DNA of 57,331 bases, counting the filler, from Jimgerdemannia flammicorona (lineage: Eukaryota): NCBI GenBank assembly GCA_003990765.1. It is 3 parts of 3 records of this genome, joined end to end, with 100 filler letters (N's around TTAATTAATTAA, not from the genome) between each part and the next. Parts side by side here need not be neighbours in the genome. Positions count along the whole stretch, not along the records: positions 1 to 19,052 come from RBNJ01002041.1; 2 more parts are not named here. One strand, given 5' to 3'. Under the pieces are notes generated by a model. That model worked only from the letters and a program-made list of their open reading frames with translations. It was not told where the DNA came from and ran no database searches. This document shows positions 1,641 through 54,040 of this stretch, piece by piece. The translations under genes and the position numbers were made by a program. How positions within the stretch are numbered: position 1 is the stretch's first letter; every line of letters starts with the position of its first letter.

Positions 1641-3465
1641 CATCACTTGGGTTATACAACCTTTGGAAAGTAACTACAACATCATTTTTGAAGAAAAGAG
1701 ACTAGTAACATAGCAATCAACAGGCAATCTGAGGTGTGTACTGGGCAGAGTGGCCTGAATACATTTGACTGGCAGCAGGTGGGGAGAGGCCCTGGCCTGG
1801 GAGGAGGTATGCAAAGACTACTGGTAGGTGGATATAGAAGGAGAGGAGGTGGTAGTGGAGAACAGAGATCTGAGAGGGCAAGCTTTGCAGAGATAGTGAA
1901 GGAGAGAAGACAGATGTCAGGGCTAGAGGGTTGGCTGAGAAAAGGCAAGGAAATAGAGAAGTGGTAGTATAGGAGGGAGTAGCCCTGGGCAGGGGGAGTG
2001 GTAGGGCTGGAGGTATAGTAGCTGGAGGGGGTGTGATGGCTGATGGAGATGAAACTGCTAATCTGGAAAAAAAATCCAGATGTGACTATGGATGGCATGG
2101 CTGAGTGACTGGGGCTTGGAAGCCAAGGAGATTTGGCAGATGGTGTAATGAGTCTGGCAGTAGTGCTGTTACTCAAGAAATCGATCTTGGCATTTACAGT
2201 GATACTGTACTTCCAGGGCCTAGCAGTGATGACGAAAATGGTACTGGGGTGACTGGAGCAGCATCCATAAAGTTTTTGAAGAGACTGAAGAGAGTAGAGG
2301 TGGGCTTTGAGGAGGTTGAGCCTTTGGAGGAAGCACTAAAGGTTGGATTGATAGTTGGAGAGGTGTGTGTTTTAATGGCATACTGTCTGAAATGGGATCC
2401 CAGGGTGGTTCAATTGATGGTGAAAGGAGTGTCCATGGTGATAGCAGTGGAGACAAGAAGGAGAGTTGAGGAGGTCATGGTGGAGTATGGAGAGGTTGTG
2501 GATATTGGATTCAGAGTCTGGGAGAGGACCTTGCTCAGAACTGGAGATGTGGATATGAGGGTTCGGCTAGCAGAGAAAGAAGCTACCAGGAAGGCAAGGG
2601 ACTGGCCTTTGAAGATGGTCTGGGGGGCAATCTTGTGTAAGGTAACAAGGGTGAAGGGGAGTGAGGAGGAGGAAGAGGACTTATTAGAAGTACTGAAAGA
2701 GTTGAGTAGTACTGTGGAGTGGTGGGCGAAGGCTTGGAAGGCTTTTGAGGAGGCAACACACTTGGAGGTAGTGGATGGAAGGCAGATTCAAGTAAATAAG
2801 GAGCAGTGGGAATGAGATCAGGGATGTAAGAGATAGAAGAAACTGCTGACAAAGATGACAGATAGGTCTCTGAAGAATATGAGTAGAATGGTGGACACAG
2901 AGAGGACCAAAGTGAGTGTCTGGGTAGGTGAGGGTAGTGGGAGTGCTGGGAAGGGGACCAGTGAGAACAGGGAGGTAACTAGCAATGATCTATATACTGA
3001 TGGTATGCTTGAGGTTTGGGAGGAGACATGGGAGGACTCCCCTATCCCTACTCTCCTTATCAGGCATGGTCCAGCTTCCTGAAGCAGAGTGGTAGAGGAT
3101 GTGCCAATGCGGGGGGCCCAGCAAGTGCAATTTAGAGTTTCAGAGGTAACAAAAGGGAGACAAGTGGTGGTGGCCAGTGAGGAGGAACTGGTGGATGTCT
3201 CAGAGGAGTAGGATGAGGCTGCAAGTGCTGGGGCTGACACCACAATACTGGAGGGCAGGAGGCCAGTGACTCCTAGAGGAAAGGAGGTGGGGAACTTACT
3301 TTGAATATACAGGAAGATGAACAACCTGGTAGCCAAGGAGCTGGGAGAGGTGGATTTGAGGGTAATGAGTGATGAGCATTAGATGCAGATCCTGCAGGGG
3401 GATGGAGTGGTGATGATATTGAAGGCAAAAATTCTTATAGTGTATCTGAAGGAGGAAGGCTATGA
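1640..3465 (+). mobile_element. LINE copy 1 (L1/Tx1-like), 5' part with decayed ORF1, interrupted by Gypsy A1
   Basis: FDWQQVGRG, ASIKFL..VEVGFEE, WDPRVVQL and RTGDVDMRVRLA match ORF1 at 52081..54009. The reading EEGY|EVDE resumes after 13887. The 5' boundary is approximate. Confidence 0.85.
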
Positions 3466-5513
3466 TGTAAGTGCACAACCTCCAAGCCACTGAAATTATA
3501 TGTCACCCTCTGAACAAGCCACTGAAATCACACGTGACCTCTGAACAAATCTGGAAATCACCTGCTTGATCATAAAGCTGAGTCAAACTGAAGTCACAGC
3601 ATATAAAGCTGAGTCAATATGAAGTCACAGAACACAAGATTTACACAAATGGAATCTTACCAATCAGGATCAAATACATATATACCAAGCACCGAGATGT
3701 GTCAAATCAGAGAACCAAAACAAAACAACAAACTACAACTTCCAAACATACAAACATGACCACTGAGATCTATACCCATATTCATGCTGACATTTGGAAT
3801 ACCATTATCAACTGAGCCACACCCTCTCTGCCCCTCATGAATATCCATAGCCTAGCACTCCTCTACTTCATGGAAGCCCAATGGAATGCTATGAATATGC
3901 TTAGTAAGGCCCACCAAATTAGACAAATCTCAAGCTACTACCAGATCGGCTGCCTCCTGGAAGGCATGATTGAACACCACTATGATACAGACATTATCCA
4001 GATGTCTCAACATCAGAAGCTCATCGCCTGCAAACATTGAGAACTCTTCTATGAGTATAGCACCATTATTCTCTATCTTCGAGTTACTACAGCTGAAATG
4101 GTTGCTACTCTATCCTATGGCCAAATTGACAATATGATATAAGAACTCAACCATAAGTACCTCGAGTATGTCAAAACTACAGACAGAACCTTCCCACACC
4201 CCAATGATTATATCCTGCAAATGCCCCAAGTTGGATACACTATAAAAGACATCTATGATATAATCCACTTCAATGAAGACAAAGCAGAAGATAATGATCT
4301 CTCTGATACCAACATGACCTCTAGCTAAGGATCTCTGCCAACCCTGATCACACCACCAACCTTGTCAATGAACTTACAACAATTTATAACAGCATATGAG
4401 ACTTATTGGGACAATGACTACTAGCACGAATACCAACCCACATTCACCCCCGATTACTTCAACTACAATGAAGAGACCAGAGAACACAACCTGTACCTCC
4501 AGACAATCCTTGAGATTGAATCAACCACCCCACTACCTGAGTATGAGTGACATGAACCACAGCCGCCAGCTTACTATAACCCTGCAACTCATAGTACTAT
4601 AATCTACCAAAGGTATGTAGACAGCGAATCTGATGAAAGTGAAGATGATGCACCCCTCCTTTGCCCACCAACACCTTATCCAGCATATGAGACTGATGAT
4701 GTCACCTTGTGGGATGGAGATGAAGTTCCAATATATTATTACCTCAGTGAACAAGAAGAAGTAATCCATGAACCACTCTTCCTAGATGACTACTTTATCA
4801 GAGATGATGCAATTGATGGTGATATTATCGAAGACTACCCAGACAGTACCTAAACCTATAAATAGCCTAGCAGTCATAATATACTTAGATTAGCCTTATA
4901 TTATGTGACTGTGAACTAACTCAGCAGTTAGACGATCTCTTGATATGTCAGATCACTCTTGTACTATATGACTACATTCCAACTCAGCAAGGCACTTAGT
5001 GCTACATCTATATCTAACATAGTCTAGATAGCCCCTCACTAGTATAAATACCCCCTCCCCCAGACCTCAGAATCTCAGACTCGAATACATAAGAATATTC
5101 TTGAATACTTCCCCCACAATATCTCTTCACACAACTACTCCTAGTATAGCAATATCATGAATAGCGAATAAATCTATTTAATAACCCACAAACCACTCTT
5201 AAGTAAATCCACTCCCCGTTAGGTCCCACTCCTAACCCCATCATGAAATTTCCTAATTGGGTATTGTCTACAGTGATATGCCAATTCAACTAAGCTGGTC
5301 TTAGTTTCTTGAAGTTTCTGAAATACAGAAAATCCTGAACATCCAGAACTAGTCTGAAAAAGGACTTTGGTTGAGATGTCAACCTGAACTTGAAATTAAT
5401 AAGTGTAGAGGATGTACTCCATATAAAATTGATCCTGACCATAAGAAAACAGTCTTTCAGAATATCCTTCCAGAACTACATAATAGTTACCCTAAAAAAG
5501 CAACCCTCTTACA
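3466..5513 (+). repeat. 5' LTR of A1 (2048 bp)
   Basis: TG...CA ends; direct repeat of 11818-13887; TATAAATA at 5043 and AATAAA at 5167. Confidence 0.95.
3756..4853 (+). pseudogene. 365-codon accessory ORF inside the family A LTR (U3), unknown function
   Basis: ATG(MTTEIY) to (EDYPDST)TAA. The span is the same 1098 nt at 12108-13205 and 49517-50614(-). The stops I traced are C>T/G>A changes that are sense codons in other copies. Confidence 0.8.
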
Positions 5514-5516
5514 ACT

Positions 5517-5531
5517 TGGTAGCAGCAGTTT
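5517..5531 (+). promoter_or_regulatory. Primer-binding site of A1 (TGGTAGCAGC..., possibly tRNA-iMet-like)
   Basis: TGG motif 3 nt after the LTR end. The tRNA identity is an inference. Confidence 0.6.
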
Positions 5532-5620
5532 ACAATCTAATTCCACTTCAAGATGCTTCCTCACCCTGCTACAAACTCTTCTGCGAATTCCTACAAGTTG
5601 GTATAAAGCCCAATCTCTGA

Positions 5621-8600
5621 ACTGAAATTTATTCTGAACCATCTGATAATCTGGAGAGAATTGAACCTGATGTACAAGAACAATTTGACCTCTACACCTG
5701 CAACAAGTGGGATAAACTTCATTCAAAGAAAGAAGTACTCTGGTTAAACCAGCAAATAGGCGAAACTCTATTCACTGAACTCCTTGCACTACACCCAGCA
5801 AGTCAAGACAAAGAAGGTCTTATTGAAGCCTTCTTTACTCTTCTCAACAAGAGTTTTGTCAGCTCCACAAATCTGAGCAACCTAGGACAACCAGCAGCAG
5901 TCTTTCTAGCCTTAGTTCCTCATGAAGCCCAAGTCTCTGTAGCCAAGTGGCTCAACTCTACCGACTTTTACTGTACCAGGACCAAGACTGCATTATACTA
6001 CCAATTCCAGAACAGCAAGGCTCACCATATTCTTAAAGAAGAAGCAAGAGAAACCCTTCATCAACTACCTGACCCCAAACCTGAAGCAGACCCTGCTACA
6101 GCCCTACCTGAATCTGAAACCAATACTGAATCTAAACTTGACTTTGAATTAAGTCTATCTGAAATCAGATATACAACTGATTCTGTCTACTTCAATACTG
6201 AGCAAACCCAATTACACGGGGACCAAACTGAAGAAGAGGAGGAGTATCTCAGTAAATTTGATCCCAGATATACCACCAAAGGAGAAGTACCTCCATCAGG
6301 ACAGAATACACCTACACAGCAACAAACAGTTATCTATCAAGCCCTCACTCCAGATCCACAACTACTACTCCAGCAACTTACACAGACCCAAAGAACCCCA
6401 TCACACTCTGCACTAGTACCTCAAGTAGTACCAGTAACACCACTACCAGTAGTCCAACCACCTCTAGTAAACAATATGGTGAACTAACAGATTCTAGACC
6501 TCACAGCCCAAGTAGCCATAATGGTAGCAACCATTACTACCTTAGCTAAACAGACCTGACCTACCAAAAATCTGAGCCTACCTACCTTCAATGGTACTGC
6601 ACAAGAAGTCTAAAGCTTTATTAGTATAGTTGACACCAACTTCAAAGCCAATCAATGGACCAATGAGCAAGTTGCAGACCACATTCTGACAAATAATCAA
6701 GACCACACTCTGGAACAACTCTTTGCTACCACTACAGCCTATGTCCGCTAAGTTATTACATTCTTCTGAGGACCTGCCAAAGAATGGTGGTGAACCCTTC
6801 CTGAAAAACCCCTCACATGGGATACCCGACCTACAGTAGTTGCTCAGAATGTAGCAAACAATGCCCCAGGATATAGAGCCCATCCTGCAGCCCCTGGACT
6901 CAAATAACTCATAATTGCTCAATACCACAGCAAAACCATGATTGCTGAATCTTGAGTAAAACTCTGTAACCTCAAATTTGACATATATGGCAAAGAAGAA
7001 TTTGAAACCTTCTGTACAAAACTCAAGTCACTCCTGAACACTGTTGGCCTAGGATATATTGCCAATGATGAAGCATGAAATGGTACAAAAGCAGACCACT
7101 TATTTGATGCCCTGCCTGAATGGCTTACTAGAAAAATCTGAGAACAAGGCCGCCCAGTTGGTTGTGACTACCAACAATAGTGCCTGGCAAGAATCAAGAC
7201 TATGGTCAAGCAAATCCTAACAGCTGGACCAATTCTGCCCTGAAGACAATTCAACAACAAGGACCAAGAAAGAAGAACCCAAGCATGAAGCATCCTGAGC
7301 TCCCTCTACATCCACCTCTTGGACACCTAGAAATCATGAACCCACCCAGCCAAGTACCTTCAAGAAACTCACTGAAGGTGAAAGAAATGAACTTCAAAGA
7401 AGCAGAGTATGCTTCTATTGCCGAAAGACAGGACATATGGCCAGTGTCTGCCCTAACTGAAAACCCCAAACAGCAACATGAGCAACTGTTACCACTCTGC
7501 ATTACCTCAACAATCTGACCACCAGAATACTGGACTTTGTCAAGTTAAGACAAACTGCTAAGGCCCCAACCAAAGGAAGTCAGAAAGCAGCTGGATATGA
7601 TCTGTATGTAGCCAAAGAAGCTACAGTTTCCAACTGAGAAGTCAAACAAGTCTATATAGGAATCAGTATCCAAATCCCTGAAGGATATGTTGGAAGCATA
7701 TGCTGTTGCAGCAGCCTAGTATTGAAAGAACTCTCAGTAGAAGAAGGAGTCATTGACGAGGATTACACAGGTGAAATTATTGTCCTCATCTGAAACCACA
7801 GTTGGACACCCTTCAAGATCCCTATTGGTTTCTGCATCACCCAGATCCTGTTCAAAAAAATTGAGTCAACCCTGACAGTCAAGGAAGTCCCTGAACTACT
7901 GCCCACCATCCAAGGATCCAAAGGATTTAGCTCATCAAACAAGGTCCCAACTCAACCTATCACAAGCAAAGAAGAACAATTCTACAAGAAGATTAAAGAT
8001 GGATATGTACCAAGTGGCTGATGCCCTCATGACATTGGAATGTACTCTTCTCAAATGATTGATGATTGCTTCTCTTGTATCAATGAACTGGCTCAAAGAA
8101 GAACTAACAGAAGAAAAGCTCCTATAACTGAAATCACCACCATTGGATCAGACAAACTGCTCACACTTAAGGCTTTTGTCAACTGAGCACCTGTCAAGAT
8201 TATGATAGACAGTGGTGCCTCAGGCAACTTCATCAATGAAGAAACAGCCAACAGACTTAAGGTCTTCACCTCTCTGGTACAACAAACCCAAGCAGTGGCC
8301 ACAGCCAATGGAACCTCACATGTTATTAGCAAGGAAGTCCACAACCTATCCTTCCGAATTGGCAACTACCGAGTATATATTACCCTCCAAATCGTACCAC
8401 TTCCTGATAATGAAATCATCCTTGAGACTCTATGGTTAAAACAAGAGAACCCCATGATCGATTGGATAAACCATTCTCTGACCATCAAGAAAGGATGCCA
8501 CAACTTCAAACTGCAAGGTGAGAAGGACCCACTTAATTCTAGTGACCCTGGACCAAAGATCACCCACATCAACAAGCTACAACTCAAGAAATTGGCCAAG

Positions 8601-11597
8601 AAATGCCCTCTCTTTGCAATCTCCATCTGCCCATCCAAAGGAGAACCCAAGAACTCTGAAGAAGATCTTTCCAAAGTTGACAGCTATGTCAGACCACTAC
8701 TCCAGAAATTTTAAGACATATTCCCGAAAAAGCTCCTAAAAGGCCTACCTCTCAAACAAGCAGTAGACCATGCAATCAAGACTATCTCAGATGCCAAACC
8801 AGCCTTCAAGTCAATCTACCACATGTCTCCAAGAGAAATTGATGCACTTAAGAAAGAAATTGACGAACTCCTAAAACAAGGATTTATTAGACCCAGTATA
8901 TCATCTTATGGTGCACCAGTCCTATTTGTTGTCAAGAAAGAAGGAGACCTGCAAATGTACATTGACTACCGCAATCTCAATGAACAGACTATCAAGAACT
9001 GTTGCCCACTACCTAGAATCAATGAAATATTTAATAGGCTCATAAACCTGCAATTCATGAGCTCCTTTGACCTGCAAAATGGTTACTGGCAAATTACTAT
9101 AAAAGAAGAAGACACCTACAAGACAGCTTTCTGAACTTGCTATGGATACTTCGAGTTCCTGGTTATGCCCTTTGGCTTAACTAATGCTCCAGCAACCTTC
9201 CAGACACTGATGAATACCATTCTGCATCTATACCTGGACAAATTCATTGTTGTCTATATTGATGACATCCTAGTCTTCAGCAAAACTCTGGAGGAACATC
9301 TTGAATACCTTGAACTAGTACTACTGAAACTCTGAGAAAACTGACTCTTTGCAAAACTCAGCAAGTGTGAATTTTTTCTGAAAGAAATTCAATTTCTTAG
9401 ATACATTGTCACTCTAAATAGAATCAAAGTAGACCCCAGAAAAATCTCTGCAATCAAGGATTGGCCCAGACCCAAGAAGCTGAAAGACCTCCAGTCATTC
9501 CTAGGATTAGCAAACTATTACAGGTGATTTGTTACCAACTTTGCTAAAATTGCTACTGCCCTCACCCAAATGACCAAGCACAGCAAGAAACAAGAACAAC
9601 CCTAGACCATGAAACAAGAGAAAGACTTCAACAATCTTGTAAATTGGAGACCTGAGCAAGATACCACCTTTTAAGCACTGAAGGATGCCTTGATAACTAC
9701 TCCAGTACTTCAAGCGGCAAATCCTGCCCTACCATATGAAGTCACTACTGATGCCTCTGATCTAGCTCTTGGAGCAGTGCTCATGCAAGAAGGACACCCT
9801 GTGGCCTATCACACCCACAAGTTCAATGATACTGAAATTAACTATGCAATCCATGAGAAGGAAATACTAGCCATCATAGATACTCTGATCTAATGGTAAC
9901 CCTACTTAGAAGGAGCACACTTCACCATATTGACTGACCACAAATCATTAGTCAATATCAAGACACAGGCTACCCTTTCTTGAAAGCAAGCCAGATAGAT
10001 GAAAGTCCTCACCAACTTTGACTATGAAATCCAGTACCACTCTGGCAAGGAAAACATTGTTGCTGATGCAATCTCCAGACCACCCATTGAAGAAGTTATC
10101 CAAACTCTGACCTTGGTTACCAATACTATCATGGAACAAATCATTACAGCATATGTTGATGATAAGGAAGCTCAAGCACTCTGAGAAATCCTGAACAGTG
10201 ATGATACTGACAATCATACTCAGTACAATTAATACCAACTGAAGGACAATGCTATCTACTATAAGAATAGACTATATGTCTCAAACAACTGAAACCTCCA
10301 AAGGACTATCCTATTCAAATTTCATGATGCCCCTATAGCTAGACATTTAGGATTTGATAAATATTATGAAGTTATCTCCTGAAACTTCTATTGGCCCTGC
10401 ATGGCAGATCAGCTCAAAACCTACATTACTTCCTGTAATGCCTGCCAATAAAACAAGTCCTCAACACTAGCAAAACCTGGCTTACTTCACCCTATCCCAG
10501 TACTATCTGCGAATTGGAAACAAATCTCTATGAACTTTATTGTACAACTATCCCGAACCAAGAATGGGAAAGATGCAATTGTTGTCTTTGTGGATTATCT
10601 CAGCAAACAAGCCCACTTTGTACCTACTACCACTACCACAACAGCACCAGACATAGCCACACTCTTATTTGACAACATCTTCTACTATTATAGTCTTCTT
10701 AAGATCATTATTAGTGACTGAGACCCAAAATTCACCAGCCATTTTTGGAAAGCCCTCCATGCACACCTTGGAACAAAACTTGCACTATCCACAGCCTTTT
10801 ACTCTAAAACTGATGGCCAAACTGAAAGAATGAACCGAACTCTGGAACAAATGCTAAGGAACTATGTTTTCTACAGACAAGATGATTGGCATGAATATCT
10901 CACTGCAGTCGAGTTCACCTATAACAACAGTAAGCAAGCCTCTCTTGGAATGACCCCATTCTTCGCCAATATTAGACAAAACCCAAACACCCCTTTGACA
11001 CTCATCCAAACTACTAAAGAACCCTCTACAGTCAAAGCTATTGAAGAATTCCTGCTCCGAATGCGTAACCTAAGCCAGATCACAATCGAGAATTTATCAT
11101 GAACTCAAGAACAACAGTCATAGTATATTAACCAACACTATAGAGAAGAAATCTTTGATATTGGAGAAAAAGTTCTACTGGACATCAGAGGATACCAAGT
11201 TGACAACCTCAAGTACAGACTATCTACAAAGCTGAACAGCAAGTTCATTGGACCATTTGAAGTCATTGTACAAGTCTCTCTAATCTCCTACAAATTGGTG
11301 CTACCAGACACTATTAAGATTCACTCAGTCTTTAATGTCCAACATCTCAAGCGATACAATGAGAATAATGATGAGCTATTTCCAAACCGGACTACCAAAC
11401 CACCTGCACCTATCATTATTAATGACCAAGAAGAATACGAAGTTGAACAAATCCTCAACAAATGTGGTCACAAGAACCACCCTGAGTACCTTGTTAAATA
11501 GAAAGGTTATCCAATCCATGATGCAACCTGGGAACCTAAGACCAATCTCCAGAATGCTACCAACTTAGTTCAGGAATATGATTCCTTGAACAACTAA
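5621..11597 (+). pseudogene. A1 gag-pol: long N-terminal extension, Gag with CCHC knuckle, dUTPase, aspartic protease, RT, RNase H, integrase, chromodomain
   Basis: (R)GPAKEWW at ~6770; CFYCRKTGHMASVC at 7410; IDSGA at 8205; VYIDDILV at ~9252; TDASD at ~9750; integrase core DGQTERMNRTLEQMLR; GPF; chromodomain EYEVEQIL..YLVK*KGY..ATWEP at ~11430-11580. Many nonsense codons. Confidence 0.92.
7530..7935 (+). pseudogene. dUTPase domain of A1, between Gag and protease
   Basis: AAGYDL, SSL, GVIDEDYTGEI and (R)GSKGFSSS correspond to trimeric dUTPase motifs. Confidence 0.9.
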
Positions 11598-11804
11598 AAC
11601 CGAATACTCTGACACCTATCCATACATACTATATACTATACCTTCTGAATATTATAATTATCACAAACCAAACCAAGAACTCAGCAAAACAAGACAAGAA
11701 TACCGACCCTCTGGAAAAATAGCAAAACTGAAAACTTTTGACCTCCCAAATGGTGTAACAACACTAGAACAAATTAGAAGGCCCCGATGAGGACATTGAA
11801 AGCT

Positions 11805-11816
11805 AAGAAGGGAGAG
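11805..11816 (+). promoter_or_regulatory. Polypurine tract of A1
   Basis: AAGAAGGGAGAG immediately before the 3' LTR. Confidence 0.85.
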
Positions 11817-11817
11817 T

Positions 11818-13887
11818 TGTAAGTGCACAACCTTCAAGCCACTGAAATTACACATCACCCTCTGAACAAGCCACTGAAATCACACATAACCTCTGAACAA
11901 ATCTGGAAATCACCTGCTTGATCACAAAGCTGAGTCAAACCAAAGTTACAGCATACAAAGCTAAGTTAATATGAAGTCACAGAACACAAGATTTACATAA
12001 ACAGAATCTTACCAATTAGGATCAAATGCATATATACTGAGCACTAAGATGCATCAAATCAAAGAACCAAAACAAAACAACAAACTATAACTTCCAAACA
12101 CACAAACATGACTACCGAGATCTATACCCATATCTGTACTGACATTTGGAATACCATTGTCAACCGAGCCACACCCTCTCTGCCCCTCATGAATATCTAT
12201 AGCCTAGCACCCCTCTACTTTGTGGAAGCCCAATGGAATGCTCTGAACATGCTTAGCAAGGTCCACCGAATCAGACAAATCTCAAGCTACTACCAGATCA
12301 GCTGCCTCTTGGAAGGCATGATCGAACACCACTATGATATAGACATTATCCAGATATCTCAACACCAGAAGCTCATTGCCCACAAATATTGAGAACTCTT
12401 CTACGAGTATAGCACCATTATTCCCTACCTCCAAGTTACTATAGCTGAAATGGTTGCTACCCTGTCCTATGACCAAATCGATGATATAATACAAGAACTC
12501 AACCACAAGTACCTCAAGTACATTGAAACCACAGACAGAACCTTCCCACACCTCAATGATCATATCCTACAAATGCTCTAAGTTGGATACACCATGAAAG
12601 ACATCTATGATATAATCCACTTCGATGAAGATGAAGCAGAAGACAATGATCCCTCTGATGCCAATATGATCTCTAGCCAAGGATCTCTGCCAACTCTGAT
12701 CACACTGCCAACCTTGCTGATGAACTTATAACAATTCATAACAGCATATGAGACTTATTGGGACAATGACCACTGGCACGAATACTAACCCGCATTCATC
12801 CCCAATTACTTCAACTATAATGAAGAGACCAGAGAATACAATCTGTACCTCTAGACAACCCTCAAGATTGAACCAACCACCCTACCACCCAAGTATGAGT
12901 AACATGAACCACAGCCGCCAGCTTACTATAACCCTATGACTCATAGTACTGTAACTTACCAAAGATATGCAGACAGCGAATCTGATGAAAGTGAAGATAA
13001 TGTACCCCTCCTTCGCCCACTAATACCTTATCCAGCATATGAGACTGATGATACCACCTTATAGGATAGAGATGAAGTTCTAATATATTATTACCTCAGT
13101 AAATAAGAAGAAGTAATCCATAAACCACTCTTCCTAGATGACTACTTCATCAGAGATGATACAATTGATAGTGATGTCATCGAAGACTACCCAGATAGTG
13201 CCTAAACCTATAAATAGCCTAGCAGTCACAGTATACTTAGATTAGCCTTATACAATGTAACTGTGAACTGACTCAGCAGTCAGATGATCTCTTGATATAT
13301 CAGATCACTCTTGTACTACGTGACTGCATTCTGACTCAGCAAGGCACTTAGTGTTACATTCATATCTAGTATAGTCCAGATAGCCCCTCACTAGTATAAA
13401 TACCCCCTCCCCCAGACCTCAGAATCTCAGACTTGAACACACAAGAACATTCCTGAATACTTCCCCCACAATATCCCTTCACACAACTACTCCTAGTATA
13501 GCAATATCATAAATAGCAAATAAATCTATTTACATAATAACCCATAAACCACTCTTAAGTAAATCCACTCCCCATTAGGTCCCACTTCTAACCCTATTAC
13601 AAAATTTCCTAATTGGGTATTGTCTGCAGCAATATGCCAATTCAACTAAGCTGGTCTTAGTTTCTTGAAGTTCCTGAAATATGAAAAATCCTGAACATCC
13701 AGAACTAGTCCGAAAAAGGACTTTGGTTGAGACATCAATCTGAACTTAAAATCAATAAGTGTAGAGGATATACTCCATATGAAATTGATCCTGACCATAA
13801 GAAAACAGTCTTCCAGAATATCCAGAATTTCCAGAATATCCTTCCAGAACTACATAATAGTTACCTTAAAAAAACAACCCTCTTATA
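11818..13887 (+). repeat. 3' LTR of A1 (2070 bp), containing the accessory ORF copy 12108-13205
   Basis: Direct repeat of 3466-5513. The terminal CA has mutated to TA. Confidence 0.95.
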
Positions 13888-16800
13888 TATGAGGTAGATG
13901 AGGGGTGGGAGACAGAGCTGGTGGGAGTCACTGGCAAGAGGGCTGAATACTGCTGGACCAAGCATTATGGATTGCAGCTCTGGTAAAAAGCCTGCCTAGA
14001 GTACTAAGAGGAATTTGAGAAGAAGGCAGATGGGGAGATGAATGAGCTGTTGACTGGATTGGAGGCTCAGAGGGCTGAAGAGAAGGTGGTGGCTGCAGAA
14101 TATAATCTGGACTTGACACAGGAGGAGATAAATATAGAGCAGTAGAGAAGGACTTGATAATACATAATTCTTCATTATGAATAGTATAACAAATATTTTT
14201 TCCTTGAATGTGAATGGGTTACAGGGTACTTATTGATATAAGAACATTTTTACTTGGCTGAAGGGATTGGAGGCTGATCTCTTCCTCTTACAGAATGTCT
14301 GGTGTGAGGATGATTTGGATAGACTGGAATAGATGAAGGAATGAGAAGGTGTGACAGTTTGGAAGGGCAAGGTTGGAATTCTGGTACAGAAAGGCAGAGG
14401 GGAGATAAGGAATGTACAGAGCTGGGAGATAGATTGGTCTGGGGAGAGTGGATATATATGGGTTGGGAGCCAGTCATGGTGGGCTCCTGCTACTGTCCTG
14501 CAGTATGGGGTGAGCATGTGGATTGAGTGAAGGGCCTATATGAGAGTGGAACTCTTGTAGAGATTGGAGTGGATATGCTCAGTAGGGACTTCAATATGGT
14601 TCGGGATGTATTGATGAATAGAACTGATGAAGGACAGGGAGCTGAGGGTCGGAGTGGAGGGCTGGCAATATGGGAGGAAGTGGAAAGACTGAGTGCTCTG
14701 GTTGATATGGGCAGAGAGTATTGGGGAGATAGGAGGGTATACACACACTGGGCTGGGGGTCTGGAGATGAGGATTGAATGAATTCTGATGGTCAGCTGCT
14801 GGGGCTTGGATGTTTGGAAGTCACTAGAGGTAGAATGGTGTCCTTGGTTGGATCATTGGGGGCTGTTAGGGCAGGGGCATTTTGGGGGGAGTGGGGATAG
14901 GCCTGGACATTGGTACCTCAATTCCTCCTTATTAGATGATAAGATCTAATGGGATGAGTAGGCTGAAGATATTCAATGGAGAGTGGAGTGCTGGAGGCAG
15001 GAAGGTGTCCCAGTTGGTATTCAGTAGATAAGGATGAAGGAGATAGCCAGAACCTACTGGAGTGAGGCTGGCAAGGAGGCTGAGAAACAGAGGAGACAAA
15101 GGGTGTGATGGGCTTCAAGTAGATTGTCTAGACTCTTGGAGAACTGGGCAAGACTGGTGACATTGGAGAGGGAGGAGGATTGGAGATTGATAAGGGTAAA
15201 AATGGAGGTTGATGAATTGCAACAGGTGTTGCAGAAAGAGAAAGAGACAAGGGTACAGAGTTTGGTAGTATAGCTTCATTGGCAGGAGTTGGAGGAAGGG
15301 GAGAGACTCTCAAAGTTTCTCACAAGAGCCCTTCAGGCGAGAAGGGTACAACAATGGTGGAAGGGGGTACTTAATGCTGATGGTATATTAGTGTATGGTA
15401 TATAAGATACATATTCTTGGATTATTAAAGAAGTATTGGAGTGGATTGTGGAGTGAGGAGGAGGGTGGGGCAGATGCTGAAGCCATTGATCAAGTGTTGG
15501 AAGATTGGCACCCTACACAAGTAGATGGGCTGGGTGACTTAGTACTACCAGTACAAGAGGAGGAGATCCACCAGGTTCTTGCCATATTAACTCTAGGTAC
15601 AGTGCCTGGGGAGGATGGTCTGCTCTGGGACTTCTGGAAGAAGATGGTGGGAGTTCCAGGAGTACTGGGTGAGATGATGGTACTGTGTAATTGGATTTTA
15701 CAGATAGGGAGATAGGTGGGAGAACAGGATCTGGGGCTGGTGATGTGGCTTTACAAGAACAAAGAAAGGCGAGAGGACTGGAAGAACTGGAGGCCAATTA
15801 TGCTATTGGATATGGACAGAAAGTTGGTTACCAAGGTAGTGGTCACAAGGCTGCAAAAGGTGGCCCAGTAGGTCTTGGGTGTTGAGCAGAGGGGCTTTGT
15901 GGAAGGCCAGCTCATCAGGGATAGTACAGCCTGAGTTCATGGAGTTATTGAAGGGGTATGAGTCAGTGGACTGGATGGGTGACTGGTCTTTCTGGACCAG
16001 AAGAAGGCTTATGATCAGATGCAGCAGGTCTGGCTGGCAAAAGTATTGGATAGGATTGGAGTCCTACACCAGTTCAGGTTAGCAATGATCAGCCTACTGG
16101 AAGGAAGTAGGGCAGCACTCATATGTAATGGACACAGAGGGGTAGTATTTCCCCTAGGTAGGGGGGTGCTCCAGGGGGACCTACTGTCTCTCATTTTGTA
16201 TGCTCTTTCTCTGGAGCCCTTCATGGATAGAATCAGATGGAAGATAGTAGGGCTCTCTATCTTTGATATTGGGTGGAAAGTAGGAGCCTTTGCAGATGAT
16301 ATGGTGGTTAGCCTGAGATCAATTGCAGATGTTGAGAAGCTTAAGAAAATAGTGGAGTGGTATGAGGAGAACTTTGGGGCTAAGCTTAATTGGCATAAGT
16401 GTAAAACAATGATATTAGGCAATAGTCTAGTTGGAGGGGAGATTATTGGAACCATCATCCCCACTAGTGAGATGGTATAGTACTTAAATATTTATCTGTT
16501 AGTATATGGGTCAGTTTTACCCAGTCTTTGGTGGGAACAGCAGATTGGAATCTGGGAGGAGGCCCTGTGGAGTTGGGGGGGTCGCCAATTGTCTCTGGCA
16601 GGGTATATTTTGATTTTGAATATCTATTGGCTGCCAAAGTTGTAGTATCTGGCTTATTATCTAACTTCCCAGCTTGGGTGGTGAAGCAATTGATGAAGCT
16701 GGCCAAGGGGTGGATCTGAGCTGGAAGATAGAGTCAGATCAGCTAGGAGGTCTTGTTCTTACTGGTGGCAAGTAGTAGACTTGGGCTGGTTGACTTTCCT

Positions 16801-17796: not shown

Positions 17797-19052
17797 CATC
17801 TTTCTCCGGTAACATTCAGGTTACACAAGACTCAGACAACACTTTCTACAACGTTTTTGGTGTCCAGCGACTAACAACATGGATGGCAACGATCGATCTG
17901 GTGAGCGTACTGGCCAGGGGGATGGTGGCGCCTTTGGCTGGCAGCAGGTGGGGAGGAGGGGAGATGGTTTGGGGATGCCAGGGGCCTCGATGGCTAGCCG
18001 GGGCCCCAGCGGCAGAGGAAGGGGAGGTCTAAGGCAGAGAGGAGGGGAGAGGATGACCTTTGCTGACAAGGTCAGGATGGGGGCGATGGCTTCTGGGCTG
18101 GATAGTTGGCTGGGCCTGGGGAAGGCGTCGATGGCTACTACCGGGGGTCAAGGAGGTGCACCCCAGGGTGCTTCTGGTGGTAGGGAAGGGGCCGGAGTAG
18201 GGGCTGGAGATGTGACGGTTGATGGGGCTGTGACTGGAGATCTGGCAAAAAATCCAGATGTGACGGCAGTTGGCAATTCGGGACTTGAGGTGGGCACGAG
18301 GCCCAGGGACCTGGCGGATGGGGTGATAGGCATGGTGTCGGCCCCGTTACTCAAGAAGTCGAGGTCCGAATTCGCGGTCACGATGTGCTTCCGGGGCTTG
18401 GCAGTGACGGCGAGGATGATTTTGGGGCTGGTGGCGCAGGAGGCTAAGGGAGCAGCGTCGGTGAAGTTTTTGAGGGGAAAGGAAGGGGTTGAAGTGGGGT
18501 TCGAGGAGGAGGATGCCTTGTTGGCAGCCATGGAGAAAGGGGTGATGGTTGGTGGGGTGGTGGTCCCTATGGCTCAGTGTATGCACTGGGACCCCCGGGT
18601 GGTGCAGTTGACGGTGTTGGACCTCCCTATGGTGTCGAAGGAAAGGACCAGGGAGTTGGTTGTAGAGGCGATAAAGGAGTATGGCGAGATTGTGGACGTG
18701 GGGTTCAAGGTCTGGGAGGGCACGGAGCTTAGAACTGGAGATGTCGATGTCAGGGTGAGACTGGCTGGGAAGGAGAATACGGGGAAGTCGAGGGACTGGC
18801 CAGCAGCGCTGAGGTGGGGACAAGTGGAGTGTAAGGTCGCTAGGGTAAAGGGGACTCAGGAGGAGGAGGAGGACTTGCTGGAAGCTCTGGAGGACCTGGA
18901 AGGGGCTGTTGCAAGGAGGAGATTAGCCTGGAAGGAGTTCGAGGCCAGGATGGTGGTGGGGGAGGTGGATGGGAAGAGGGTTCGGATGGAGAAAGGGGCC
19001 TGGGAGAAGATGCAGGGGAGGAGGATTCAGAAGGAGTTGTTGGCAAAGTTGG
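17797..19052 (+). mobile_element. LINE copy 2, 5' end, truncated by the assembly gap
   Basis: Highly similar to 52011 onward and starts at the same 5' position. Confidence 0.9.
17879..19052 (+). CDS. LINE ORF1 protein (partial, open up to the gap)
   Basis: Uninterrupted frame, close homologue of 52081..54009. Confidence 0.85.
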
Positions 19053-19152
19053 NNNNNNNNNNNNNNNNNNNNNNNNNNNNNNNNNNNNNNNNNNNNTTAA
19101 TTAATTAANNNNNNNNNNNNNNNNNNNNNNNNNNNNNNNNNNNNNNNNNNNN
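19053..19152. other. Assembly gap with artificial TTAATTAATTAA linker
   Basis: 44 N + six-frame-stop 12-mer + 44 N. Identical construct at 38194-38293. Confidence 0.97.
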
Positions 19153-19987
19153 GGAAAAGAATCACAAGGCCCTAGAACCCATCCGAATTGGAGAAAAGGT
19201 TCTACTGTATCGAAATATGGTAGAAGCCTCATGGTCATGAAAACTGGAGCCCAAATGGGAAGGACCCTTCTACGTGCAAGATATCAAGGGAACTACCTTC
19301 TGGCTTAGAAAAATCTCAGGGACCATACTGCCTACCACGGTATATAGGAACAGACTCAAGAAGTACCATGAACCTATACAAGAGAAGCAAAACGTGATGA
19401 CCGCCCACGAGGTTCTAGTCCGCGAATCATAACAGCATGTCCCGTGACCAGCAGGCTATCTGTCTGGACCATTCTCTAAGGGATACGGCACTGGCAACTA
19501 CTCATCCATGAAGACTTTCGCAGTCAGAGGAGTTCGAACCGTCAACTGATTGGTCAGGATCAGAATCAGGCCCTTGCTCTATATGAAGGGAGCGACCCTT
19601 CACCATCACACCAAAATACAAAGGGAAGACACCAGCCCATAAACACCAGTTTTTGACCCCTTGCCAGAGGTTATGGGATCAGCAAATTTTTCAGGACTGG
19701 ACCAATGAATAAGGACGCTCAGGAAGATCCTAATTCAGGAGGAAGATGTAATAGTGACCCCAGAATGATGACATCAGCACAGGAGACAGCCTTTCCTTAC
19801 AAGCCACCAGATCAGAGTACAAGAAGATCATATGGCATGCAAGATAGGCAACGATGACCAACTGTGAGTTATTGTGACCACAGCACAAGCATCCTGAAGA
19901 ATATAAAAGAAGGATCAAGGAACCGCAGTAACAGCAACCAACAAGAACCCCAATCCCAAAATAGCTCAAAGACTTACCACAAACAAA

Positions 19988-21273: not shown

Positions 21274-24167
21274 CTGTATAGATATATTCTGTCCTGATGG
21301 AGGTGCATCTCCTTTGGTGGTATATCTGGGATCGAATTCACTGAGATACTCCTCCTTCTCTTTAGTTTGGTCCCTGTGTAGTTGGGTTTGCTCAGCATCA
21401 AAGTAGACAGAATCAGTTATATATCTGATTTCGGATGGACTTAATTCAAAGTCAAGTTCTGGTTTGGTGTTGGTTTCAGATTCAGATAGAGCTGTAGCTA
21501 GTCCTGCTTCCAGTTTGGGGTCAGATTGTTGATGAAGGGTTTCTCTTACTTCTTCTTTAAGAATATAGTGGGCCTTGCTATTCTGGAATCAGTAGTATAA
21601 TGTAGTCTTGGTCCTGGTATGGTGAAAGTTGGTAGAGTTGAGCCATTTGGCTATAGAGGCTTGGGCTTTGTGAGAGACTAAGGCTAGAAAGACTGCTACT
21701 GGTTATCCTAGGTTACTTGGATTTGTGGAGCTGATAAAACTCTTATTGAGAAGAGTAAAAAAAGCTTCTATAGACCTTCTTCATCCTGACTTGCTGGGTA
21801 TAGTGCAAGGAGTTCGGTGAATAGGGTTTCACCTATTTGCTGATTTAACTGGAGTATTTCTTTCTTCAAATGAAGTTTGTCCCACTTGTTGTAGGTATGG
21901 AGGTCAAATTGTCCTTGTACATCAGGTTCAATTCTCTCCAGATTGTCAGATAGTTCAGGATAAATTCCAGTTCAGAGGTTGGGCTTTATACCAACTTGTA
22001 GGAATTCTCAGAGGGATTTGTAGTGGGGTGAGGAAGTATCTTGAAGTAGAATTTGGATTGTAAACTGCTGCTATCAAGTTGTAAGAGGGTTACTTTTTAG
22101 GGTAACTATTATGTAGTTCTAGAAGAGTTTTCTGAAAGTTCTGAATATTCTAAAAGACTGTTTTCTTATAGTCAAGATCAATTTCATATAGAGTACATCC
22201 TCTATACTTATTGATTTCAAGATCAGGTTAACATCTCAACCAAAATCCTCTTTTGGACTAATTCTGGATGTTCAGGATTTTTCATATTTCAGGAAGTTCA
22301 AAAAACTAAGACCAGCTTAGTTGAATTGGCATATCACTGCAGACAATACCCAATTAGGAAATTTTCATGACAGAGTTAGGAGTGGGACCTAATGGGGAGC
22401 AGATTTACTTAAGAGTAGGTTGTGGGTTATTAAATAGATTTATTCACTATTCATGATATTACTATACTAGGAGTAGTTGTGTAAAGGGATATTGTGAGGA
22501 AGTACTCAGAAGTTGTGTTTGGATTGTTCAGGTCTTTAAGTTTGTTTAAGTCTGAGATTCTGAGGTCTAGGGGAGGGGGTATTTATACTAGTGAGGAGCT
22601 ATCTGGACTATGCTAAATATAGATGTAGCACTTAGTACCTTGCTGAGTCAGAATGCAGTTATGTAGTATAAGTGTGATCTGACATATCAAGAGATCATCT
22701 GACTACTGAGTTAGTTTACAGTCATATCATATAAGGCTAATCTAACTATACTATAACTGCTAGGCTATCTATAGATTTAGATACTATCTGGGTAGTCTTA
22801 AATGACATCACCATCAATGACATCATCTCTGATAAAGTAGTTATCTAGGAAGAGTTATTTATGGATTAATTCTTCTTATTCACTGAGGTAGTAATATATT
22901 GGAACTTTGTTACTATTCTATAGGATAGCATTGTCTGTCTCATATGCTGGGTATGGCATTGGTGGGCAAAGGAGGGGTACATTATTTTTGCTTTCATCAG
23001 ATTCACTATCTGCATACCTTCTATAGGTTACAGTACTATGAGTTGCAGGGTTGTAGTAAGCTGGTGGCTGTAGTTCATATCACTTGTACTTGGATGGTAG
23101 AGTGGTTAGTTCAATCTTGAGAGTTGTCTGAAGGTACAGGTTGTGTTCTCTGCTCTCTTCATTGTAGTTGAAGTAATCAGGAGTGAATATAGGTTAGTAT
23201 TCATACCAGTGGTCATTATCCCAGTAGGTCTTGTAGGTGGTTATGAACTGTTGTAAGTTCATCAGCAGTATTGGTGGACTGATCAGGGTTGACAGAGATC
23301 CTTGACTTGAGATCATGTTGGTGTCAGAGAGATCATTGTCTTCTGCTTCATCTTCATTAAATTAGATTATATCATAGATATTCTTCATCATGTATCCAAC
23401 TTGAGGCATTTGCAGAATATGGTCATTGGGGTGTGGGAAGGTTCTGTCTGTGGTCTGGATATATTCAAGATACTTGTGGTTGAGCTTTTATATTATATTA
23501 TCGATTTGGCCATAGGACAGGATAGTAACCATTTCGGCAGTAGTAACTCAGAGGTGGGGAATAAAGGTGCTGTACTTATAAAAGAGTTCTCAATGTTTGC
23601 AGGCAATGAGTTTCTGGTATTGGGACATCTGAGTGATATCTGTATCATGGTGGTATTCAACCATATCTTCTAGGAGGCAGCCAATCTGGTAGTAGCTTGA
23701 GATTTGTCTGATTCAGTGGGTCTTACTAAGCATATTCAGAGTATTTCATTGGGCTTCTATGAAGTAGAAGAGTGCTAGACTATGGATATTTATAAGGGGT
23801 AGAGGAAGTGTGGCTTAGTTGATAATAGTATTCCAAATATCAGCACAGATGTGGTTATAGATCTCAGTAGTCATATTTGTGTATGTTCAGAAGTTATGGT
23901 TGTTGTTGTTTGTTTTGATTCTCTGTTTCGACATGTCTTAGTGCTCAGTATATATGTATTTAGTCCTAATTGGTAAAATTCTGTTTGTATAAATTTTGTG
24001 CTCTGTGACTTTGTATTGACTCAGCTTTGTGTACTGTGACTTCAGTTTAACTCAGCTTCGTGATCAAGCAGATGATTTCCAGATTTGTTTGGAGGTTGCG
24101 TGTGATTTTGGTGGCTTGTTCGGAGGGTGATATGTGATTTCAGTGGCTTGAAGGTTGTGCACTTATA
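21274..24167 (-). mobile_element. Gypsy family A copy A2, 5' portion (LTR 22080-24167 plus start of the internal region), interrupted by B1
   Basis: Reverse complement of 3466 to ~6319, including the PBS region. Confidence 0.92.
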
Positions 24168-25458: not shown

Positions 25459-26830
25459 TATAAGAGGGTTACTTATTAAGATAACTGTTATATAGTTCTG
25501 GAAGAATTTTCTGGAAGTTCTAGATATTCTAGAAAACTGTTTTTTTAAGGTTAAGATCAATTTTGTATAGAGTATATCCTTTATGTTTATTGATTTTAAG
25601 ATTGGATTGATGTCTCAACCAAAGTCCTTTTTCAGACTAGTTCTGGATATTCAGGATTTTTTATATGTATTTCAGGAAGTTTAAGAAACTAAGACCAGCT
25701 TAGTTGAATTGACATATTACTATAGACAATATCTAATAAAAATTTCATAATAGAGTTAGGAGTGAGACCTAATAGGGAGTAGATTTACTTAAGAGTAGTT
25801 TGTGGGTTATTAAATAGATTTATTCACTATTTATGATATTTCTATATTAGGAGTAGTTTATATAAAGGGATATTGTGGAAAAGTGCTCAGAAGTTATATT
25901 CAGAATACTTAAGTCTTTAAGTCTAAGATTCTGAGGTCTGGGAGAGGGGATATTTATACTAGTGAGGGGCTATCTGAACTATATTGAATATAGATGTAGT
26001 ACTTAGTATCTTACTAAGTTAGAATGTAGTTATGTAGTATAAGTGTGATCTGACATATTAAGAGATCATCTGACTGCTGAGTCATTTCACAGTTACATTA
26101 TACAAGGTCAATCTAACTATATTAATAACTGCTAAGTTATCTATAGATTTAGATGCTATTTGGGTAGTCTTTGATAACATCACTATTGATGATATCATCT
26201 CTGATAAAGTAGTTATCTAGAAAGAGTGGTTTACAGATTACTTCTCCCTGCTTACTAAGATAATAATACATCAGGACTTTATTATCATTCTATAGGATAG
26301 TATCATCTGTCTTATATACTGAGTATGGAGTTAGTGGGCAAGAGAGGGGTACATCATCTTTACTTTTATCAGATTTACTGTCTGCATACCTTCTATATAT
26401 TATGGTACTATAAGTTGCAGAGTTGTAGTATACTAGTGGTTATACTTTATATTATTTATACTTAGGTGGTGGAGTTATTAGTTCAATCTCAAGAATTGTC
26501 TAGAGATATAGATTGTATTCTCTAGTCTCTTCATTATAGTTAAAGTAACTGGGGGTAAATATGAGCTAGTATTCATACCAGTGGTTATTATTCCAATAGA
26601 TCTTATAAGTGGTTATGAACTGTTATAAGTTCATCAATAAGGCTAGTAGAGTGATCAGGGTTGGCAGAGATCCCTGGCTCAAGATTATATTGACATCAGA
26701 GAGATCATTGTCTTCTGCTTTGTCATCATCAAATCAGATTATATCATAGATATTCTTCATGATATATCCAACTTAAAGTATTTGCAGAATGTAGTTATCA
26801 AGGTATAAGAAGATTCTATCTGATAATCTT
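25459..26830 (-). repeat. Truncated, decayed family A LTR (U5/R and 3' part of U3)
   Basis: Starts TATAAGAGGG (reverse complement of the LTR end) and follows the 22080 LTR for ~1.37 kb. Confidence 0.9.
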
Positions 26831-38193: not shown

Positions 38194-38293
38194 NNNNNNN
38201 NNNNNNNNNNNNNNNNNNNNNNNNNNNNNNNNNNNNNTTAATTAATTAANNNNNNNNNNNNNNNNNNNNNNNNNNNNNNNNNNNNNNNNNNNN
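38194..38293. other. Assembly gap with artificial TTAATTAATTAA linker
   Basis: 44 N + 12-mer + 44 N. Confidence 0.97.
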
Positions 38294-48869: not shown

Positions 48870-51800
48870 TATAAGAGGGCTACTTTTTAGGGTGACCGTT
48901 ACGTAGTTCTGGAAGACTGTTTTCTTATGGTCAAGATCAATTTCATATGGAGTACATCCTCTATGCTTATTGATTTCAAGATTGGGTTGATGTCTCAACC
49001 AAAGTCCTTTTTCGGACTAGTTCTGGATATTCAGGATTTTCTGTATTTCAGGAAGTTCAAGAAACTAAGACCAGCTTAGTTGAATTGGCATATTGCTGCA
49101 GACAATACCCAATTAGGAAATTTCGTGATGGGGTTAGGAGTAGGATCTAACAGAGAGCGGATTTACTTAAGAGTGGTTTATGGGTTATGGAATAGGTTTA
49201 TTTGCTATTCATGATATTGCTATACTAGGAGTAGTTGTGTGAAGGGATATTGTGGGGAAGTGCTCAGGAGTTGTGTTCAGATTGTTCAAGTCTGAGATTC
49301 TGAGGTCTGGGAGAGGGGGTATTTATACTAGTAAGGGGCTATCTGGACTATGCTAGATATGGATGTAGCACTAAGTGCCTTGCTGAGTCAGAATGCAGTC
49401 ATATAGTACAAGTGTGATCTGATATGTCAAGAGATCATCTGACTGCTGAGTCAGTTCACAGTCACGTCGTACAAGGCTAATCTAACTATATTATGACTGC
49501 TAGGCTATTTATAATTTTAGGCGCTGTCTGGGTAATCTTCGATGACATCACCATTGATTGCATCATCTCTGATGAAGTAGTTATCTAGGAATAATGGTTT
49601 GCAGGTTACTTCTCCTTGTTCGCTGAGGTAGTAATACATTGGGACTTCATCTCCATCCCACAGGATAGCATCATCTGTCTCGTAGGCTGGATAGGGTGTT
49701 GGTGGGCGAAGGATGGGTGTATTGTCTTCGCTTTCGTCAGATTCACTGTCTGCATACCTTCTATAGGTTACAGCACTATGAGTTGCAGGATTGTAGTAAG
49801 CTGGCAGCTGTGGTTCATATTGCTTGTACTCAGGTAGTGGAGTGGTTGGTTCAATCTCGAGGGTTGTCTAGAGGTACAGGTTGTATTCTCTGGTCTCTTC
49901 ATTGTAGTTGAAGTAGTCGGGGGTAAATGCGGGTTAGTATTCGTGCCAGTGGTCATTATCTCAATAAGTCTCGTATGCAGTTATGAACTGTTGTAAGTTC
50001 ATTGGCAAGGTTGGCGGAGTGATCAGGGTTGGCAGAGATCCTTAGCTAGAGGTCATGTCAGCGTCAGAGGGATCATTGTCTTCTGCTTCATCTTCGTCGA
50101 AGTGGATTATATCGTAGACGTCCTTCATGGTGTATCCAACTTGAGGAATTTGCAGGATATGGTCATCAGGGTGTAGGAAGATTCTGTCTGTGGTCTCGAC
50201 GTACTCAAGGTACTTGTGGTTGAGTTCTTGTATCATGTCATCGATTTGGCCATAGGACAGGGTAGCAACCATTTCGCTGGTAGTAACTCAGAGGCGGGGA
50301 ATAAAGGTGCTGTACTCATAGAAGAGTTCTCGATGTTTGCAGGCAATGAGCTTCTGGTGTTGAGACATCTGGGTAATGTCTGTATTATGGTGGTGTTCAA
50401 TCATGTCTTCCAGGAGGCGGCCAATCTGGTAGTAGCTTGATATTTGTCTGATTTGGTGGGCCTCGCTAAGCATGTTCAGGGCATTCCATCGGGCTTCCAC
50501 GAAGTAGAGGAGTGCCAGGCTATGGATATTCATGAGGGGCAGAGGGGGTGTGGCTCGGTTGACAATGGCATTCCAAATGTCAGCATGGATACGGTTGTAG
50601 ATCTCAGTGGTCATGTTTGTGTGTTTGGAAGTTGTGGTTGTTGTTTTGTTTTGGTTCTCTAATTTGATGCATCTTGGTGCTCGGTATATATGCATTTGGT
50701 CCTGATTGGTAAGATTCCGTTTGTGTAAATCTTATGTTCCATGACTTCATATTGACTCAGCTTTGTACACTGTGACTTCGGTTTGACTCAGCTTCATGAT
50801 CAAGCAGGTGATTTCCAGATTTGTTCAGAGCTCGCGTGTGATTTCAGTGGCTTGTTCAGAGGGTGACGTGTAATTTTGATGGCTTGGAGGTTGTGCGCTT
50901 ACAACTCTCCCCTTCTTAGCTTTCGATATCCTCATCAGGGCCTTCTAATTTGTTCTAGTATTGTTATACCATTTGGGAGGTCAAAAGTCTGGTAAGGTCT
51001 ATTTTCTCAGAAAGTGGCATGCTCATAGTACAGTTGTCTAACGCATTGGATTCACATGTTAAAGGGTTGTGTGTTCAATGCCATGCGCTGGAAGTGATTC
51101 TGATGTCATTCACTGCTGGAGAATTTCCTCTAAGGAATCTTCTTAATGTCTATGCCTTGTTTCCCACCAGTGGTACAGGGAGAATAAGCTTGCTTTCAGT
51201 TTTGCTATTTTTCCAGAGGGTTGGTATTCTTGTCTTATTTTGCTGAGTTCGTGATTTGGTTTGTGATAGTTATAATATTCAGAAGAGTAATATATAGTAT
51301 GTATGGATGGGTATGGAATATTTGGTTCTAGTTGTTCAAAGAATCATATTCCTGAACTAGATCAGTAGCATTCTGAAGGTTGGTCTTGGGTTCCTAGGTT
51401 GCATCATAGATTGGGTAACCTTTCTATTTGACAAGGTACTCAGGATGGTTCTTGTTGCCACGTTTGTTGAGGATTTGTTCAACTTTGTACTCTTCTTGGT
51501 CATTAATGATGATAGGTGCAGGTGGTTTGGTAGTGTGATTTGGAAATAGCTCGTCATCATTATCATTGTATCGCTTGAGATGTTGAACATTAAAGACTAG
51601 GTGAATCTTAATGGTGTCTGGTAGTGCCAGTTTGTAGGAGGTTGGAGAGACTTGTGAGATAACTTCAAATGGTCCAATGAACTTGCTATTCAGCTTAGTA
51701 GATGGTCTGTGCTTAAGGTTGTCAACTCGGTATCCTCTGATGTCTAGTAGGACTTTTTCTCCAATATCAAAAGTTTCTTCTCGGCAGTGTTGGTTAACAT

Positions 51801-52010: not shown

Positions 52011-52080
52011 CACCTTTCACCAGTAACATTCAGGTGACACAAGACTCAGACAACACTTTTTACAACGTTTTTGGTGTCCA

Positions 52081-54009: not shown

Positions 54010-54040
54010 GTTGAGGTCTCTTCTACAATATCTACCCAAT

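Follow-up and report, generated by a model that had tools for sequence, protein, structure and literature searches.

In retrotransposons, the long terminal repeats (LTRs) are regarded as control regions that do not code for protein; they are masked during annotation, and a solo LTR counts as a dead remnant. Among retroviruses, tas/bel of the foamy viruses and nef of HIV encode trans-acting accessory proteins and are 3'-end genes that overlap the LTR, and foamy virus Tas, an acidic protein expressed from a second promoter, transactivates its own LTR. In mouse mammary tumor virus (MMTV), passages of two papers describe the superantigen gene sag as an open reading frame (ORF) in the 3' LTR (PMC2119085, PMC2191119), and the second gives Sag as a type II membrane protein of this vertebrate retrovirus (PMC2191119). 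Extra ORFs also occur in Ty3/gypsy elements, and the passages concerned name ORF0 of the rice elements Retrosat2, RIRE3 and RIRE8 (PMC3485330) and brtn of the Botrytis element Boty (PMC8365987). Chromoviruses that bear a dUTPase are, in passages of a further paper, reported only from fungi, in the Tcn1-like and other clades (Postia, Phanerochaete and Tmt1 of Tuber), and a figure legend there marks an "add. ORF" in some of them; the text passages of that paper hold no mention of an ORF within an LTR (PMC2864245). More broadly, in titles, abstracts and passages of the open-access literature we found no description of an ORF inside the LTR of a retrotransposon.

Here we consider such a frame, called the LTR gene below, in DNA of Jimgerdemannia flammicorona (Eukaryota). 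The window, that is the whole stretch of DNA analysed, measures 57,331 nucleotides and joins, by way of filler letters, parts of three records of assembly GCA_003990765.1; two pairs of 44-base N runs, with 12 bases between the members of each pair, stand at 19053-19152 and 38194-38293. By position, and by position only, MMTV sag appears to be the closest analogue of the LTR gene, since in both cases, as far as the passages on sag go, a complete accessory ORF that is extra to gag and pol lies inside the LTR, so that each LTR contains it, and, for the LTR gene probably, upstream of the main promoter. Neither a sequence nor a fold relationship joins the two (Pfam and PDB at E<=10; fold at E<=0.001), and the product of the LTR gene is a highly acidic protein of an env-less chromovirus of fungal type, whereas Sag is given in the cited passages as a type II membrane protein. 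The tas/bel and nef genes share no homology with the LTR gene; they start in the internal region and overlap U3 partly, whereas the LTR gene and its candidate promoter lie wholly inside the LTR. Foamy virus tas serves as a working model for the LTR gene, the resemblance being in the proposed working only. The ORF0s and brtn are, like the LTR gene and as far as the passages describe them, lineage-restricted extra ORFs, some of them with long LTRs and some less constrained than pol. The brtn gene of Boty is said, in the title of its description, to be an antisense gene, and in this orientation and in its place outside the LTR it differs from the LTR gene, as does ORF0 of Retrosat2, which is placed in the internal region, upstream of gag-pol (in passages of PMC3485330). 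The element that carries the LTR gene resembles the dUTPase-bearing fungal chromoviruses in its protease, its reverse transcriptase (RT), its chromodomain-like pol end and its dUTPase-like part; since such elements are reported from fungi, and since the decay described below is RIP-like, the host is likely to be a fungus.

The carrier elements and their LTRs

The window is a nest of retroelements in which Pfam matches in the larger ORFs reveal gypsy-type protease, RT and dUTPase as well as LINE endonuclease and RT. The full element of the family considered here (family A), which we call A1, occupies positions 3466-13887. Using blastn and MAFFT, we delimited its 5' LTR (3466..5513, plus strand; 2048 bp, TG...CA) and its 3' LTR (11818..13887, plus strand; the end mutated to TA), and a 5-bp target duplication, TATGA, stands on both sides of the element (3461-3465 and 13888-13892). 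On the same strand, a PBS-like TGGTAGCAGCAG at 5517 follows the 5' LTR and a PPT, GAAAGCTAAGAAGGGAGAG, at 11798-11816 precedes the 3' LTR. The internal region (5514..11817, plus strand) is decayed and holds, all on the plus strand, a gag-like ORF (5621-6487), a dUTPase-like stretch found by tblastn with P0005 (7530-7943), protease and RT (8187-9134; aspartyl protease and a weak RVT_1 match in Pfam) and the end of pol, with its stop at 11595-11597, which carries what we take, by eye, to be a chromodomain-like motif. To judge from these parts, with the chromodomain recognised by eye and the RT match weak, the carrier element is probably a Ty3/gypsy chromovirus.

The family has three further LTRs in the window, all of them on the minus strand. 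A3 (48870..50903) is what a truncated element, with its pol end at 52007-51316, has as its 3' LTR, A4 (21990..24165) is the 5' LTR of another truncated element with leader and gag at 22053-21274, and A5 (25461..26822) is 5'-truncated and heavily mutated, with a GC content of 0.305. Similar G-rich DNA of the GAGGTAGA type lies outside the 3' ends of the 3' LTR of A1 (13888-13905) and of A5 (about 25445-25460), which suggests either that both copies entered members of one repeat family or that the chromovirus prefers certain targets.

Other elements share the window. A gypsy element at 28.1-34.8 kb has a dUTPase domain (30389-31054) between protease and RT (Pfam E 4e-16). A LINE at 52027-57331 encodes a 660-aa ORF1 that belongs to no Pfam family, followed by endonuclease and RT; it combines a GC content of 0.53-0.57 with a very strong skew of G over C (0.46-0.48), and at least three partial copies of it are present in the window (also at 17797-20824 and 44816-45319). 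The 526 nt at 27297-27822, where the window is richest in AT (GC about 0.25), form a large imperfect palindrome, with a 78% match to its own reverse complement. Searches of the window for tRNAs and Rfam families gave no match.

The LTR gene opens with the ATG at 3756 and closes with the TAA at 4851-4853, which gives 1098 nt, or 365 codons plus the stop. According to blastn and the translations, this frame occurs five times in the window, in four full LTRs and in one that is truncated, and blastn and MAFFT place it at LTR positions 291-1388 of 2048 in every copy; its end lies 660 nt before the 3' end of the LTR, so it is not an internal-region ORF between the 5' LTR and gag. Copy 1 (3756..4853, plus strand), in the 5' LTR of A1, has 6 internal stops, and copy 2 (12108..13205, plus strand), in the 3' LTR of A1, has 8. 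Copy 3 (49517..50614, minus strand), in A3, is the least decayed with 5 internal stops, copy 4 (22777..23874, minus strand), in A4, has 13, and copy 5 (26822-26149, minus strand), in A5, comprises codons about 142-365 (the last 224), in register, with 8. The ATG is invariant in the four copies that include it (4/4) and the TAA is common to all five (5/5); all five in the window are broken, and no intact full-length copy was seen.

A preliminary description of this DNA, made from the sequence, had counted three copies of a frame of 1098 nt from ATG to TAA, beginning at 3756 and 12108 on the plus strand and at 50614 on the minus strand. These three stand, since blastn and the translations find the frame in register at each of them, and only the count has to be corrected, as two further copies on the minus strand (23874-22777 and 26822-26149) bring it to five. 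Its two examples of codons that one copy keeps as sense while others have a stop there, at 4080 (codon 109) and at 12678 (codon 191), were likewise recovered.

Decay of the copies and constraint on the frame

The two LTRs of A1 differ by about 11%. Counted per site, C-to-T changes affect 66/374 CpA, 2/10 CpG, 13/190 CpC and 22/406 CpT, a threefold preference for CpA, and the observed over expected numbers of CpG in the five copies (15/74, 15/72, 44/90, 6/69 and 0/30) reveal a strong depletion. The copies have thus decayed after insertion, almost exclusively by RIP-like C-to-T and G-to-A transitions, and the depletion of CpG implies that CpG deamination contributes to the decay too. Because of this RIP-like hypermutation, the divergence of the LTRs is unusable here as a clock of insertion.

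We aligned the five LTR copies with MAFFT, and this alignment is the basis of the counts of gaps and identity. Gap columns number 0/1098 in the ORF, 7/294 upstream of it and 154/799 downstream. The nucleotide identity of the ORF between copies is 86.5%, as against 91.0% and 89.5% in the flanks, and is not higher than in these. When the four full copies are taken together, stops occur at 20 sites of the sense frame, and solely the terminal one is common to all four, while the other five frames contain 13, 16, 3, 19 and 19 stops common to all four. As far as these shared stops tell, the sense frame of the LTR gene is the sole frame that was open in the common ancestor; frame -1 was not open ancestrally, because 3 of its stops are common to all four copies.

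Since the two LTRs of A1 were identical at insertion, the differences between them provide a built-in neutral control. Within the ORF, this pair differs at 121 sites, 120 of them transitions, which are spread over the three codon positions as 46/31/44. By contrast, the sites at which the two LTRs of A1 agree and A3 or A4 differs, that is those that changed between lineages, are distributed as 53/28/97 (chi-square 10.07, p=0.0065); their subset of transversions is distributed as 5/5/15. Contrasts of synonymous and non-synonymous counts by Fisher tests were not significant in one case (p=0.14) and gave p=0.03 and p=0.014 in two others. Of two positive controls, the 3' end of pol exhibits the same pattern as the LTR gene (24/13/40), and the gag-like ORF has no phase bias (24/15/23), so that the phase test is not uniformly sensitive; in four non-coding pieces of the LTR the phase was without consistency. 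The preliminary description had held that stops or frameshifts retained by the consensus, or the lack of an excess at third positions between subfamilies, would refute a gene. From counts per site, not from a built consensus, the copies do not all share any internal stop or any frameshift, and the third-position excess is present between lineages and absent among the changes that followed insertion.

Estimates of dN/dS (Nei-Gojobori) in the sense frame are 0.16-0.25 between elements and 0.37 for the control pair of A1 LTRs, and both shifted frames reach 0.58-1.0; in this respect no third of the protein stands out from the other two. As transition bias inflates the apparent constraint, the control already being at 0.37, the argument lies in the contrast between pairs and not in the absolute dN/dS. 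Subtracting the control counts from the A1-A3 and A1-A4 comparisons leaves, by rough arithmetic, about 30 and 49 extra synonymous differences, and about -2 and 11 extra non-synonymous ones.

The sequencing run X1, a soil metagenome according to its label and perhaps the run from which the window itself derives, yielded 2771 contig pieces of the LTR. Among 12 of the 15 indel matches, none from X1 falls inside 3756-4853, and the two inside the ORF belong to one X2 contig, where, within 5 nt, the one offsets the other. Among the 40 sites listed are two at which copy 1 has a stop, and there nearly all of the X1 depth (779.7/781.7 and 450.2/468.5) supports a sense codon.

Could the frame nevertheless be non-coding, either because an A/C-rich LTR contains an open frame by chance or through its composition or because the true gene is on the opposite strand? 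Frame -1 has 8, 9, 6 and 13 stops in the four full copies, close to the numbers in the sense frame, and the sense protein belongs to no known family and gives poor structure models. Against such an explanation stand the 3 stops of frame -1 that all four copies share, the excess of substitutions at sense position 3, which corresponds to antisense position 1, the freedom of the ORF from indels and the open protein relatives in the sense frame described below. This explanation is very improbable, and we regard it as already largely refuted. We are accordingly confident, with some reserve, that the LTR gene is a genuine coding gene, which stood under purifying selection while the element lineages diverged.

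The encoded protein and its relatives

Searches of 5.8 billion protein clusters and a profile search of 1.84 billion representatives returned two credible relatives alone. P0001 has 247 aa, is open, and is 64% identical to residues 115-364, with two in-frame gaps of 2 residues and the same C-terminus; P0002, 128 aa and also open, is 91% identical to residues 1-128, the N-terminus. Both carry residues at sites where the copies in the window have stops. Their source may be the same species or a sister species, and both may be decayed copies themselves. A third match of the profile search, P0003, is a repeat protein (E 1e-7 over 37 positions) and was set aside as spurious. Scans of metagenome contigs and viral contigs gave no confirmed DNA locus for the relatives, and tblastn detected no paralogue of the LTR gene elsewhere in the window.

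With the read-through copies, P0001 and P0002 as queries, Pfam returned 0 families both at E<=0.01 and at E<=10, and the profile search of PDB gave 0 matches at E<=10. Nor was there any fold match at E<=0.001: Foldseek against PDB, using the model of residues 1-128, reached a best E of 1.6, and the generic helical bundles that it proposed were discarded. In the ESM Atlas, the P0001 query retrieved no usable feature match, its structure matches having TM<=0.30 only, and the model of P0001 has a pLDDT of 0.39. AlphaFold2 modelled the whole protein with a pLDDT of 31.5 (<50 throughout) and residues 1-128 as helical with 55.8; in these low-confidence models, helices are predicted at residues 3-141.

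The whole protein has a pI of 4.31 and a GRAVY of -0.59, and the 195 residues from 171 to 365 have a pI of 4.05, with 42 D+E and 7 K+R, 20 Tyr, 21 Pro and 8 F+W, which bears out the earlier remark that the C-terminal half is acidic and rich in Tyr and Pro. Counted by eye, the last 60 residues of copy 1 include 19 acidic residues and 14 W/F/Y/L. This tail of roughly 200 residues is probably disordered, to judge from the models. Residues 171-365 have the composition expected of an acidic activation domain, a trait that is not specific by composition alone, and such a domain would fit the tail. A reading of "PPAY" in the protein as a PPxY late domain was dropped, P0001 being without the motif.

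A protein that lacks homology to any retroelement protein might stem from a gene of the host or of a foreign source, a piece of which entered the LTR by transduction and has been carried passively, with no role for the element, and passages of the literature do document that LTR retrotransposons capture extra ORFs (PMC5408684). The changes between lineages are, however, largely synonymous, and in P0001, at 64% identity, the frame is kept with in-frame indels only; the synonymous bias and the kept frame together therefore indicate selection within the element lineage. Moreover, no host-like relative was found among the 1.84 billion representatives. We consider passive capture to be unlikely.

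Position in the LTR, expression and meaning

The coordinates that follow are those of the 5' LTR of A1, on the plus strand. Two pairs of tandem direct repeats, read from the sequence, lie within the first 170 nt of the LTR (3484..3631), and the second pair holds TGAGTCA at 3579-3585 and 3610-3616; these repeats are possibly enhancer-like. An LTR variant in X1 skips 71 nt over the upstream tandem repeats (window 3550-3622), so copies differ in how many of the enhancer-like repeats they have. A TATATA at 3679..3684, 72 nt upstream of the ATG and invariant in 4/4 copies, is a candidate promoter of the LTR gene, and the leader that follows it is A/C-rich and without ATG between 3700 and 3755. Copy 1 has, by eye, a short upstream frame at window 3619-3759, from an ATG at 3619 to a TGA that overlaps the ATG of the gene (ATGA). 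Beyond the gene, TATAAATA at 5043..5050 (190 nt after the stop codon) is invariant in 5/5 copies, where the preliminary description had placed the TATA box of the LTR, and an AATAAA poly(A) signal at 5167..5172 (314 nt after the stop codon) is conserved in 5/5 copies.

TATAAATA is a candidate promoter of the genomic RNA. Because the gene lies between the 5' end of the LTR and the conserved TATAAATA and AATAAA, it is likely to be placed in U3. The genomic RNA would then start from the main promoter at 5043 and contain the gene once, at its 3' end, the provirus having it twice. The likeliest route of expression would be a separate mRNA of about 1.45 kb that begins some 30 nt downstream of the TATATA at 3679, has the AUG-free, A/C-rich stretch as its leader and uses the poly(A) site of the LTR itself; alternatively, the gene could be expressed from a spliced subgenomic RNA. 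That the gene has a promoter of its own is conceivable, at a little under even odds.

The invariant TATATA and the AUG-free leader immediately upstream of the ATG would also suit another arrangement, in which a real gene forms part of a very long R and not of U3, the genomic RNA starting after the TATATA at 3679, with the ORF as its first cistron and repeated at its 3' end. Such an R would, however, measure about 1.5 kb, the 5' LTR would need read-through of the poly(A) signal at 5167, which is 1.45 kb from the cap, and gag would stand behind a 365-codon ORF and an AUG-containing leader of about 770 nt. In addition, the strong TATAAATA at 5043, invariant in 5/5 copies, is at the usual position 120 nt before AATAAA. 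We give this arrangement little credence, and retain the placement of the gene in U3 as the likely one.

The product of the LTR gene would begin with about 100-140 helical residues at its N-terminus and continue with the very acidic, Tyr/Pro-rich tail of roughly 200 residues. It might act as a trans-acting regulatory factor of the element, either as an activator of LTR transcription or as a chromatin or anti-silencing factor; this function, suggested by composition only, is tentative. Also speculative is the idea that each LTR is a self-contained cassette, with enhancer-like repeats, a TATATA promoter, the 365-codon gene and a poly(A) signal, that supplies a trans factor to the whole family. 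Taken together, a selected LTR gene that lies in U3, is expressed from its own short mRNA and encodes a regulatory factor is the reading that we favour, with a probability of about 0.6.

A selected gene wholly inside the LTR means that the element carries two copies of it, that recombination to a solo LTR retains the gene, and that the product could act in trans on all members of the family. From the anatomy of the LTR it also follows that the whole gene would be carried by every solo LTR, as the preliminary description had proposed, but all copies here are dead. The LTR gene yields an orphan protein family, and it would extend to an env-less retrotransposon of fungal type a layout that a few complex retroviruses are known to have, with an accessory gene in U3. 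If the LTR is indeed a self-contained cassette, even solo LTRs would stay working genes, and MMTV sag or foamy virus tas would have in the LTR gene, in a fungal chromovirus, their first counterpart among retrotransposons.
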